Part shown: one piece after another, positions 3,610 through 5,457 of the stretch
Position numbering within the stretch: position 1 is the stretch's first letter
Layout: every line of letters starts with the position of its first letter
Source: a virus
Lineage: Duplodnaviria > Heunggongvirae > Uroviricota > Caudoviricetes
IMG/VR virus record: IMGVR_UViG_2778261154_000004
Strand: one strand, 5' to 3'
Length of the DNA: 5,457 nucleotides
Program-made: the position numbers and the translations under genes
The notes under the pieces: generated by a model
The model's input: only the letters and a program-made list of their open reading frames with translations
Databases searched by the model: none
Told to the model about the DNA's origin: nothing

Positions 3610-3794
3610 ACGCCACAATTCAAACGATACCAGAGCTTCTTATCCAGACACGAGGCAATCAGACCGAAGTGGCGAGGATGCTTTCCTGCGCAAGAGGAAC
3701 AGTGCTCAAGTACAACCGAGACAGCAAAGGCGAGCGTCACGTAATAGTTAACGGCGTCCTGATGGTCAAACAGGGCAAGAGGGGAAGACGATGA
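3606..3794 (+). CDS. ninH: NinH-like small HTH protein
   Basis: 62 aa; GNQTEVARMLSCARGTVLKY ... HVIVNGVLMV closely resembles lambda NinH as recalled. ATGA overlaps with rusA upstream and Q downstream. Confidence 0.75.
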   Translation: MNATIQTIPELLIQTRGNQTEVARMLSCARGTVLKYNRDSKGERHVIVNGVLMVKQGKRGRR

Positions 3795-4414
3795 GACTCG
3801 AAAGCGTAGCTAAATTTCATTCGCCAAAAAGCCCGATGATGAGCGACTCACCACGGGCTACGGCTTCTGACTCTCTTTCCGGTACTGATGTGATGGCTGC
3901 TATGGGGATGGCGCAATCACAAGCCGGATTCGGAATGGCTGCATTTTGCGGTAAGCATGAACTCAGCCAGAACGACAAACAAAAGGCTATCAACTATCTG
4001 ATGCAATTTGCACACAAGGTATCGGGGAAATACCGTGGTGTGGCAAAGCTCGAAGGAAACACTAAGGCAAAGGTACTGCAAGTGCTCGCAACATTCGCTT
4101 ATGCGGATTATTGTCGTAGTGCCGCGACGCCGGGCGCAAGATGCAGAGATTGCCACGGTACAGGCCGGGCAGTTGATATAGCAAAAACAGAGCAGTGGGG
4201 GAGAGTTGTTGAGAAAGAGTGCGGAAGATGTAAAGGCGTCGGTTATTCAAGGATGCCAGCAAGCGCAGCATATCGCGCTGTAACGATGCTAATCCCAAAC
4301 CTTACTCAACCCACCTGGTCACGCACTGTTAAGCCGCTGTATGACGCCCTGGTGGTGCAATGCCACAAAGAAGAGTCAATCGCAGACAACATTTTGAATG
4401 CGGTCACACGTTAG
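3791..4414 (+). CDS. Q: Late-gene antiterminator Q (lambda type)
   Basis: 207 aa beginning MRLESVAKFHSPKSPMMSDSPRATASDSL and including the CRDCHGTGR...CGRCKG zinc-binding region; essentially identical over its length to lambda Q as I recall it. SD AGAGGGGAAG precedes the start. Confidence 0.95.
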   Translation: MRLESVAKFHSPKSPMMSDSPRATASDSLSGTDVMAAMGMAQSQAGFGMAAFCGKHELSQNDKQKAINYLMQFAHKVSGKYRGVAKLEGNTKAKVLQVLATFAYADYCRSAATPGARCRDCHGTGRAVDIAKTEQWGRVVEKECGRCKGVGYSRMPASAAYRAVTMLIPNLTQPTWSRTVKPLYDALVVQCHKEESIADNILNAVTR

Positions 4415-4456
4415 CAGCATGATTGCCACGGATGGCAACATATTAACGGCATGATA

Positions 4457-4500
4457 TTGACTTTTTGAATAAAGTTGGGTAAATTTGACTCAAGAATGGC
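4457..4500 (+). promoter_or_regulatory. Late promoter pR' with the promoter-proximal part of the qut site
   Basis: -35 TTGACT (4457-4462), 17-nt spacer, -10 TAAATT (4480-4485), as in lambda pR'. Sequence from the Q stop to about +9 is near-identical to lambda, including a -10-like element in the initial transcribed region (AAGAAT here, AACGAT in lambda). Confidence 0.8.
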
Positions 4501-4628
4501 AGATTTATATCCGTTCACATTCTTTCGGTTTTTTACCCACCTCATCTTTAAGTTGTGACTGCTCCCCGCCCTGTCGGGCGAGGGTTTACGGCGTTTTTCG
4601 CTAAGCGCACTGACATGCGCATCATAAA

Positions 4629-4674
4629 CTCGGGAGCACATAGGAATAGAGCCTGCTTTCGGGATTTTTTATTT
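4629..4674 (+). terminator. tR'-like Rho-independent terminator
   Basis: CTCGGGAGCA (4629-4638) pairs with TGCTTTCGGG (4654-4663): 10 bp including 3 G-U wobbles, followed by A T6 A TTT. The 3' side AGAGCCTGC...TTTCGGGATTTTTTAT resembles the lambda tR' region. Confidence 0.45.
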
Positions 4675-4749
4675 GGGTCAGTCGTATAAAGGTCATTACG
4701 GAAGGCTGTTAACCTTCTTATCGTGGTTCGAGTCCACGCTGTCCCGCCA
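4675..4749 (+). tRNA. tRNA-Asn-like, anticodon GUU (possibly degenerate)
   Basis: Cloverleaf traced by hand: acceptor GGGTCAG/CTGTCCC (6 bp plus a T-T mismatch at 4:69), U8, D-arm with A14/G18G19/A21, perfect anticodon stem GAAGG/CCTTC with loop CTGTTAA, perfect T-arm CGTGG-TTCGAGT-CCACG, discriminator G, encoded CCA. Confidence 0.55.
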
Positions 4750-4754
4750 AACAT

Positions 4755-4830
4755 GCTGGTTTAGCTCCAATGGTAGAGCAGTCGCCTTGTAAGCGAATGG
4801 GTAGCGGTTCAAGTCCGTTAACCAGCACCA
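4755..4830 (+). tRNA. tRNA-Thr, anticodon UGU
   Basis: Perfect 7-bp acceptor stem GCTGGTT/AACCAGC, D-arm GCTC-CAATGGTA-GAGC, anticodon loop CTTGTAA (U33, UGU, A37), T-arm AGCGG-TTCAAGT-CCGTT, discriminator A, encoded CCA. Minor deviations: C at position 14 and a G-A closing pair in the anticodon stem. Confidence 0.75.
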
Positions 4831-4946
4831 TAACTGAGCCGTAGCCACTGGCTATCCTGAATTCATCAGTGACAGTTACGCTGCGGCCTTCTTTTTCCCT
4901 TCCCAATATAAGAACTACGCCATCCGTTATTTGCGGAGGTGAGGCT

Positions 4947-5162
4947 ATGAAATCCATGGACAAAATATCAACGGGCATTGCCTACGGCACCTCCGCAGGC
5001 AGTGCCGGCTACTGGTTTTTACAGTGGCTTGATCAGGTCAGTCCATCACAGTGGGCTGCGATTGGTGTGCTGGGAAGTCTGCTTCTGGGGCTTCTGACTT
5101 ATCTGACGAATCTGTATTTCAAAATAAGAGAAGATAAGCGTAAGGCTGCGAGAGGTGAATAA
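4947..5162 (+). CDS. S: Class II holin / pinholin (phage 21 S-type) with dual-start motif
   Basis: 71 aa starting [28 protein letters not shown] with two hydrophobic segments and C-terminal [13 protein letters not shown], matching the phage 21 pinholin as recalled. SD GGAGGTGAGG at 4935-4944. Met1 (4947) and Met4 (4956) give the antiholin/holin dual start. Upstream in-frame ATG 4869 lacks an SD. Confidence 0.9.
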
Positions 5163-5457
5163 TGTCGCCATCATTACGCAAGGCTGTTGCAGTTGCTATT
5201 GGTGGCGGGGCTGTTGCTATAGCATCTGTGTTAATCACTGGCCCAGGTGGTAACGATGGTCTGGAAGGTGTCAGCTACATACCATACAAAGATATCATTG
5301 GTGTATGGACTGTATGTCACGGACACACCGGAAAAGACATCATGCCTGGTAAAACGTATACCGAAGCAGAATGCAAAGCTCTCCTGAATAAAGACCTTGC
5401 CACTGTCGCCAGACAAATTAACCCGTACATCAAAGTCGATATACCGGAAACAACGCG
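5162..5457 (+). CDS. R: SAR endolysin (phage 21 R-type lysozyme, T4-lysozyme-like), 3' end truncated by the window
   Basis: Start overlaps the holin stop (TAATG). Translation [59 protein letters not shown]... has a Gly/Ala-rich signal-anchor-release segment then the lysozyme catalytic region. Runs to the window end with no stop. Confidence 0.9.

Follow-up and report, generated by a model that had tools for sequence, protein, structure and literature searches.

The DNA analysed here is a stretch of 5,457 nucleotides (nt) from a virus of the Caudoviricetes (IMG/VR record IMGVR_UViG_2778261154_000004), which we refer to as a whole as the window. Between the terminator tR' of the late leader and the lysis genes it carries two transfer RNA (tRNA) genes, one for tRNA-Asn(GUU) and one for tRNA-Thr(UGU), the already-known late-leader cassette of phages 21 and Sf6. 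We consider it likely that the pair is a compact mobile cassette whose tRNAs replace host isoacceptors destroyed by tRNA-cutting defence nucleases. As a sequence feature the pair is routine, and its annotations run to dozens among phage records and to hundreds among genomes of E. coli. Small tRNA sets of temperate phages are, however, now reinterpreted as counter-defence against tRNA-cutting immunity, and the Thr half of this pair is a published example. The companion tRNA-Asn has been overlooked, since it is unannotated in the record of phage HK446 and the HK446 tRNA was called "single" in a 2026 preprint. The most useful outcome of the analysis is the prediction that this tRNA-Asn would be the nuclease-resistant partner of the characterised tRNA-Thr. 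A preliminary description of the window, made from the sequence alone, was essentially right in its interpretation and missed that this is a long-known cassette of phages 21, Sf6 and SfI.

Two tRNA genes between tR' and the lysis genes

ARAGORN called two tRNA genes in the window and no more, Asn(gtt) at 4675-4749 and Thr(tgt) at 4755-4830, both on the + strand. When the window was scanned with all Rfam covariance models, the tRNA model RF00005 (gathering score 29) returned 55.3 bits for tRNA-Asn (E=2.9e-10) and 61.5 bits for tRNA-Thr (E=5.9e-12), and both matches were full-length (model positions 1-71 of 71). These scores are far above chance, and PGAP labels both genes as tRNAs in RefSeq E. 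coli genomes. The two phage-borne genes with anticodons GUU and UGU in the preliminary description, which had named ARAGORN as a check, were thus recovered by both programs. Both genes encode CCA by cloverleaf segmentation, and they are separated by the 5 nt AACAT (4750-4754), the distance given before. The start of tRNA-Asn at the terminator U-tract was likewise correct: the U-tract ends at 4674 and G1 of tRNA-Asn is the next base, 4675, so transcripts ending at tR' would exclude the tRNAs. The order Q, pR', U-tract, tRNAs and holin places the pair between tR' and the lysis genes, and the earlier statement that the slot lacks protein cargo agrees with the absence of any Pfam-recognisable open reading frame (ORF) between the tRNAs and the holin.

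tRNA-Thr and the P2 OLD nuclease

The OLD protein of phage P2 is lethal because it cleaves host tRNA-Thr(UGU) where CNG motifs are paired in the anticodon stem (PMC12445682). The Thr(UGU) tRNA of phage 21, "tRNA-Thr21", has a shortened anticodon stem with the changes C28U/G42A; it protects cells and withstands purified OLD in vitro (PMC12445682). Rescue of ACA decoding and growth by tRNA-Thr21 implies that it is functional (PMC12445682). In our alignments the window tRNA-Thr matches those of phage 21 and HK446 at every position; that tRNA-Thr21 is the copy found in the window follows from the naming of the phage 21 Thr(UGU) in that paper together with the alignment to the phage 21 genome. The features tied to OLD resistance are present in the window, where the anticodon stem reads GUCGC/GCGAA as against ACUGA/UCAGU in the host thrU, with U28-A42 in place of C28-G42 and G27·A43 unpaired.

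A second study reached a similar result with the HK446 Thr(UGU), which restored plaquing of OLD-sensitive phages to near wild type, whereas extra host thrU failed to do so (bioRxiv 10.64898/2026.07.10.737580). The tRNA is termed "single" in that preprint (bioRxiv 10.64898/2026.07.10.737580), but ARAGORN finds a tRNA-Asn adjacent to it. In the HK446 record (JQ086372; extract L004, 1490-1645) the program returned both Asn and Thr, identical to those of the window, and the record annotates neither. Gly(UCC) is another OLD target (bioRxiv 10.64898/2026.07.10.737580). Variants of the slot in IMG/VR add Gly(UCC), and also Phe, Arg(UCU), Tyr and Ser, a suggestive pattern that fits counter-defence without being specific to it.

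tRNA-Asn, tRNA-Thr and the AriB nuclease of PARIS

Three host tRNAs, Lys(UUU), Thr(UGU) and Asn(GUU), are depleted by AriB of the PARIS defence system, which cuts between positions 40 and 41; cleavage is lost with the substitution U39A and reduced with A41C or U16C (PMC12409363). The Lys, Thr and Asn variants of phage T5 jointly neutralise PARIS (PMC12409363). At these positions the window tRNA-Thr has G39, G41 and A16 and the window tRNA-Asn has C39, U41 and A16, compared with U39, A41 and U16 in host thrU and U39 and C41 in host asnT; the Thr and Asn tRNAs of T5 are likewise non-U at 39. Judged by these alignments, of the three PARIS targets that are biologically relevant the cassette holds two, Asn(GUU) and Thr(UGU), each altered at AriB determinants. 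We infer that both phage tRNAs may resist AriB. We found no published test of lambdoid Asn/Thr tRNAs against PARIS in the literature.

Structure, covariation and identity elements of the two tRNAs

Segmentation of tRNA-Asn into a cloverleaf gave the acceptor stem GGGUCAG/CUGUCCC with a U4·U69 mismatch, together with a U13·U22 mismatch, C9, a 4-nt variable loop and G73. tRNA-Thr has A73, G1-C72, C2-G71, C14 as the first base of the D-loop, and the anticodon stem GUCGC/GCGAA with G27·A43 unpaired. The anticodon loops are CUGUUAA (Asn) and CUUGUAA (Thr), the T-loops TTCGAGT and TTCAAGT, and GG is present in both D-loops. The genes therefore show the standard features of elongator tRNAs (a 7-nt anticodon loop, U33, purine 37, a GTTCRA T-loop, G18 G19 and 3' CCA), with the exceptions of C14 in Thr and of U13·U22, U4·U69 and C9 in Asn. 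Two of these exceptions, the T-T mismatch in the Asn acceptor stem and C14 in Thr, had been read correctly in the preliminary description, which saw in them a reason to doubt function. That doubt is now largely settled toward function, given that the odd features are conserved, that compensatory changes occur and that identical Thr copies are active in vivo.

Natural variation in tRNA-Thr was analysed in 29 distinct variants. Stem cells were paired in 94.7% of cases and changes on both sides were seen in 11 of 21 pairs, values that 0 of 500 shuffles attained; slid controls collapsed. Compensatory examples include U-A to C-G at 3:70 and at 6:67 and G-C to U-A at 5:68, and in some variants the T and acceptor arms were wholly different yet paired. 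Position 14 was C in nearly all variants, U in a few and A in two. For tRNA-Asn, one sublineage carried compensatory changes at 6:67, 7:66 and 28:42 and retained U4·U69. This mismatch was present in 21 of 23 distinct Asn variants, and U13·U22 in all. The Asn D-arm (UC GUAU AAAGGUYA UUAC), the 4-nt variable loop, C39 and G73 recur in the tRNA-Asn of a T4-like Mosigvirus and of an Erwinia jumbo phage, in which the acceptor, anticodon and T stems are different but fully paired and 4:69 is U·G. Because the oddities are conserved across divergent lineages, with compensatory changes elsewhere in the cloverleaves, U4·U69 in Asn and C14 in Thr are, on the evidence of these comparisons, conserved lineage traits and not decay.

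The asparaginyl-tRNA synthetase (AsnRS) of E. coli recognises G34, U35, U36 and G73, and the threonyl-tRNA synthetase (ThrRS) recognises G1-C72, C2-G71, G35 and U36. All of these identity elements are intact in the window tRNAs, as is A73 in tRNA-Thr.

A known cassette with variable surroundings

The late region of phage 21 was reportedly characterised by Guo, Kainz and Roberts in 1991. In the phage 21 record (GenBank OL657228) the terminator is annotated at 39543-39590, tRNA-Asn at 39591-39665 and tRNA-Thr at 39671-39746, followed by S21; the record gives PMID 1704887 as the source for the terminator, and the tRNA features are CPT_21_64 and CPT_21_65. The same layout is found in the Sf6 record, annotated "similar to phage 21", and in both phages the annotated terminator stops 1-2 nt short of tRNA-Asn. 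The layout is also that of mEp506 and phage L, with the tRNA slot downstream of Q and before the holin. Both tRNAs were described downstream of Q in SfI, and one or both in Sf6, ST64T, PS3 and p21 (PMC3636060).

A megablast search with positions 4400-4950 matched 187 of 50,697 phage records, and the tRNA part was annotated as tRNA-Asn plus tRNA-Thr in phage 21, Sf6, SfI, mEp506, Kapi1, BTP1 and others, with 99-100% identity in the first five. The 156-nt pair alone was present in 60 phage records at a coverage of at least 80%, and E. coli has it, with both tRNAs called by PGAP, in 369 of 5,426 complete genomes. It is 100% identical to the phage 21 and Sf6 copies, and the tRNA-Asn of the window recurs unchanged in phage 21, Sf6, HK446, mEp506 and phage L.

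A five-way alignment of the window with mEp506, HK446, phage 21 and Sf6 delimited an invariant block from TTTTTTATTT to CTGCGGCCTTCT (about 4665-4893 of the window), on either side of which the flanks are unrelated among the five phages. On this alignment the cassette behaves as a unit of about 230 base pairs, consisting of the tR' U-tract, both tRNAs and a tail of about 60 nt, that would be mobile among lambdoid and P22-like phages. Its surroundings were compared in 88 IMG/VR loci, these being the ones with both tRNAs and sufficient flanking sequence. The upstream terminator was of the phage 21 type in most, of the lambda type in about 16 and of the window's type in 2; the downstream holin leader was of either the lambda-S or the S21 type. 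The window is a rare mosaic of lambda Q and pR', a variant leader, the tRNA cassette and S21 lysis genes.

Several relatives differ in what occupies the slot. In lambda (44775-44935; extract L007, about 975-1135) it holds about 160 nt of non-tRNA sequence, close in length to what it stands in for, that overlaps the annotated orf-64 and is flanked by two shared elements, the tR' U-tract and the AACTGAGCCGTAGCC segment; considered as a possible decayed tRNA pair, these 160 nt gave no tRNA with ARAGORN. In phage L of Salmonella (extract L008, 781-852) the Asn is identical to that of the window and is followed by a diverged, tRNA-like gene of 72 nt, annotated tRNA-Leu(TAA), which ARAGORN does not call and whose anticodon arm, CCUUC-CUAA-GAAGG, has a 4-nt loop.

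Longer arrays occur in IMG/VR. Seven loci (L019, L040, L085, L086, L096, L104 and L116) carry, at about +80 to +235 from the Asn start, an array of Asn, a hybrid Thr(UGU), Gly(UCC) and a terminator. The 5' part of the hybrid Thr is of the phage type, and the anticodon arm and 3' part resemble host thrU with positions 42-43 changed (UCAUC vs UCAGU); ARAGORN made no call for this gene in the seven arrays. The hybrid points to recombination with host thrU, by which the anticodon stem would again have been weakened. Another seven loci (L132, L133, L143, L151, L152, L156 and L168) have the expanded order Asn, Phe(GAA), Thr(UGU), Arg(UCU), with an Asn of the sublineage that carries compensatory acceptor and anticodon-stem changes, and other loci have the order Asn, Tyr, Thr, Ser.

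Genomic context of the cassette

The features of the window around the cassette are as follows.

3791-4414, + strand: Q antiterminator gene of the lambda type, 206 of 207 residues identical to lambda Q
4457-4485, + strand: pR' late promoter (-35 TTGACT, 17-nt spacer, -10 TAAATT), aligning with the lambda and HK446 pR'
4494-4628, + strand: late leader, of a variant form that resembles neither the lambda nor the HK446 leader, departing from lambda after about +10 of the transcript
4629-4674, + strand: tR'-like intrinsic terminator, with a 10-base-pair stem (4629-4638 with 4654-4663), an A and then UUUUUUAUUU
4675-4749, + strand: tRNA-Asn(GUU), 75 nt, from ARAGORN, Rfam (55.3 bits) and cloverleaf segmentation
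4755-4830, + strand: tRNA-Thr(UGU), 76 nt, from ARAGORN, Rfam (61.5 bits) and cloverleaf segmentation
4831-4893, + strand: conserved 3' tail of the cassette, in close alignment with the region upstream of lambda S
4947-5162, + strand: phage 21-type pinholin/antiholin S21 of 71 amino acids, 68 of 71 residues identical to phage 21 S21-71
5162-5457, + strand: first part of the endolysin gene, the rest of which lies beyond the window; assigned to the signal-anchor-release type by synteny with phage 21 only

A promoter scan of 4300-5000 found pR' (4457-4485) as the sole sigma-70-like site, and no second promoter-like site for the tRNAs within that interval; the HK446 record annotates the corresponding site as pR'. 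Of 5,426 complete E. coli genomes, just 2 contain the full length of the leader that follows (4494-4662), and phage records are essentially devoid of it. A piece of it of about 45-60 nt containing the hairpin CCCCGCCCUGUCGGGCGAGGG (free energy (dG) -19.7 kcal/mol, z-score (z) -2.2) is present as one copy in each of about 385 E. coli chromosomes, and the Klebsiella phage phiKp_30 has three copies.

The tR'-like hairpin (dG -12.5 kcal/mol, z -2.4) is a predicted terminator. Its 3' arm and U-tract (T4665-T4670, A4671, T4672-4674) are homologous to lambda tR', and it stands at the same position as tR' in lambda. A simple terminator scan of 4300-5000 gave no match, the loop of the tR' hairpin exceeding the length that the scan permits; tR' was identified instead by folding and by homology to lambda and phage 21.

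Directly 3' of tRNA-Thr lies a 50-nt hairpin (4838-4887) with a dG of -23.4 kcal/mol and a z of -4.5 in a single-sequence fold, after which CUUCUUUUU comes in both the window and phage 21. The 3' segment with this hairpin is downstream of the pair in all 88 of the IMG/VR loci, and it is also present in lambda. The consensus fold reached -25.7 kcal/mol, yet with zero compensatory pairs, and the structure is only predicted. The hairpin may act as a second terminator of the leader or serve in processing or stability, and would bracket the tRNAs together with tR'. The preliminary description had the sequence after 4830 return to lambda-like sequence upstream of S. This holds for 4831-4893, but from 4894 on the sequence, including the holin, is of the phage 21 type. 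The holin and endolysin genes share the TAATG stop/start overlap and the gene order of phage 21. ORFs at 4721-4978 (-), 4551-4754 (-), 4414-4641 (-) and 4555-4686 (+) were rejected as genes on their zero Pfam matches.

Proposed role of the cassette and alternative explanations

The anatomy of the region suggests how the tRNAs would be expressed. Lacking a promoter of their own, they would be transcribed from pR' once Q allows readthrough of tR', and some leak-through in lysogens is possible. Host RNase P and 3' processing enzymes would release them, with the CCA already encoded, and host AsnRS and ThrRS should charge them, as all known E. coli identity elements are present and, for Thr, rescue of ACA decoding has been published. 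Their main value would be to substitute for host isoacceptors cut by defence nucleases, G27·A43 and U28-A42 being the features of Thr to which the published work ascribes its resistance to OLD. The same role may extend to tRNA-Asn, and to both tRNAs against AriB, on the strength of the substitutions at AriB determinants. A second and compatible benefit could be an extra copy of the minor ACA-decoding tRNA for ACA-rich phage genes.

Several points weigh against this role in counter-defence. The authors of the preprint propose the HK446 tRNA as a possible adaptation to temperate life, and HK446 also carries a protein inhibitor of OLD (bioRxiv 10.64898/2026.07.10.737580). The published rescues relied on plasmid-expressed tRNA and not on the natural late-leader context. 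The tR' hairpin of the window is weaker than that of phage 21 (dG -12.5 vs -19.8 kcal/mol), and dependence on Q is assumed. Since tRNA-Lys(UUU), the prime AriB target, is missing from these phages, the pair alone should not defeat the characterised B185 PARIS. The tRNA-Asn of P1 retains the AriB-optimal UAAUCA, and the P1 tandem thus misfits a simple anti-AriB reading. The covariation in tRNA-Asn comes from one sublineage and represents few events, and the anchors of the search by which loci were collected constrained part of each anticodon arm.

Of the alternatives, the one with most in its favour is codon supplementation with no defence role, in particular for ACA, which is read by the single-copy minor tRNA thrU. 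In the window and in the ORFs of cassette-bearing IMG/VR loci, ACA accounts for 23-29% of Thr codons (12.4-14.3 per 1000 codons), as against 12.9% (6.2 per 1000) for ordinary genes of E. coli and 5.5% (3.0 per 1000) for those of ribosomal proteins and elongation factors. The lambda late genes, which are without the cassette, have a host-like ACA usage of 8.2 per 1000 (11.4%), lambda being the single control in this comparison. The SfI paper reports the same ACA bias (PMC3636060). Supplementation is plausible for Thr only, because ACA is enriched about twofold and Asn codons hardly at all (41-46 vs 34-39 per 1000); four asn genes are present in the host, and no bias for Asn codons was seen in the SfI study either (PMC3636060). 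Moreover, OLD is countered by the phage Thr and not by extra host thrU, so the sequence differences matter and not dose alone, and the enrichment of ACA could result from carriage of the tRNA rather than cause it. Supplementation as the whole explanation is in our judgement unlikely.

It is far less probable that one or both genes are decaying pseudogenes or relics, passengers crippled by the U·U mismatch of Asn and C14 of Thr. U4·U69, U13·U22 and the 4-nt variable loop in Asn and C14 and G27·A43 in Thr could be taken that way, the second tRNA of phage L has degenerated beyond an ARAGORN call, and a few IMG/VR singletons carry disruptive changes. The scores, however, are far over threshold and the sequences near-invariant across mosaic phages; compensatory changes occur in both genes, the odd features are kept across divergent lineages, a functional Thr tRNA of T5 also lacks A14, and identical Thr copies are active in vivo. 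We give equally little credence to the idea, suggested for HK446 by the authors of the OLD preprint (bioRxiv 10.64898/2026.07.10.737580), that the tRNAs make up for host tRNA genes in which prophages integrate, or are descended from such genes. The hybrid Thr with a thrU-like 3' half in some IMG/VR variants does show recombination with host tRNA genes. The genes lie in the late leader between Q and the holin, though, and not beside int/att; SfI carries Thr(UGU) although its integration site is thrW, with anticodon CGU (PMC3636060); the tRNA-Asn is related to those of T4-like and jumbo phages that are virulent and do not integrate; and tRNA-Thr shares just 55 of 76 positions with thrU. On grounds of position and lineage the integration-site explanation was rejected.

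The counter-defence role can also be put in a more specific form, which we offer tentatively and consider rather doubtful. Asn(GUU) and Thr(UGU) would be a minimal kit against the Toprim tRNases OLD and AriB of P2/P4-family elements, with tRNA-Asn resistant to AriB through C39, U41 and A16, just as tRNA-Thr is to OLD. Were the pair enclosed by two terminators of the leader, tR' and the putative one at 4838-4887, leak-through in lysogens could provide the tRNAs without turning on lysis, and both the recurrence of the tandem in P1 and Cyrano and the variants with Gly(UCC) would stem from the same pressure.

Comparison with other phage tRNA sets

Phage 21 is the closest relative of the window in this region. 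Both tRNAs are 100% identical, and the AACAT spacer, the abutment of Asn on the terminator U-tract, the 3' tail and the downstream S21 are shared. The differences lie upstream, where phage 21 has its own Q21 and pR' and a strong 48-nt leader terminator, whereas in the window Q is 99% identical to that of lambda, pR' is also of the lambda type, the leader has about 180 nt and the lambda-like tR' is weaker. In Sf6, SfI, HK446, mEp506, Kapi1 and P22-like phages (Lederbergvirus) the tRNAs are identical or 99% identical and occupy the slot between Q (gp23) and the holin, but the holin leader is of the lambda-S type in most. Phage L and ST64T differ in having retained Asn with a degenerate second tRNA.

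The tRNAs known to counter PARIS and OLD resemble the pair in isoacceptors and in the places of their substitutions. Those of T5 acting against PARIS share the isoacceptors Thr-UGU and Asn-GUU, a non-U at 39 and a changed 41; the phage Thr(UGU) acting against OLD shares these traits, the shortened anticodon stem and the altered CNG motif. T5 differs in having a virulent genome with about 24 tRNAs, Lys(UUU) among them, whereas the window comes from a temperate phage with two tRNAs under late control.

Shiga toxin (Stx) phages carry tRNA genes of the ileZ/argN/argO type between pR'/tR' and stx or the lysis genes, with Q-dependent expression. These genes were reportedly treated by Schmidt et al. 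in 1997, a study to which the SfI paper refers (PMC3636060). The slot downstream of the late promoter and terminator is the same, but the Stx phages pair rare-codon Ile and Arg tRNAs with toxin cargo, and the window is without protein cargo.

Tandems of Asn and Thr genes in the same order and with the same anticodons are found in the unrelated phages P1 (trnA, Asn, and trnT, Thr; extract L010, 1425-1578) and Cyrano (extract L009, 1473-1625), with the genes 2 nt apart and a Thr about 80% identical to that of the window. The Asn of these phages is of another lineage (acceptor stem GAUGGUG), the genomic contexts are different, and the P1 Thr retains the CUG/CAG motif and A14.

Other RNA features of the window

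Rfam models also matched in 1227-1425 on the + strand, upstream of the nin-region genes. Three matches exceeded their gathering scores: isrK, an Hfq-binding RNA, at 1240-1314 with 77 bits; a C4 antisense RNA at 1341-1425 with 68.7 bits; and the a1b1 target of the latter at 1227-1279 with 49.6 bits. Together they form a P1/P7-style C4 antisense RNA module.

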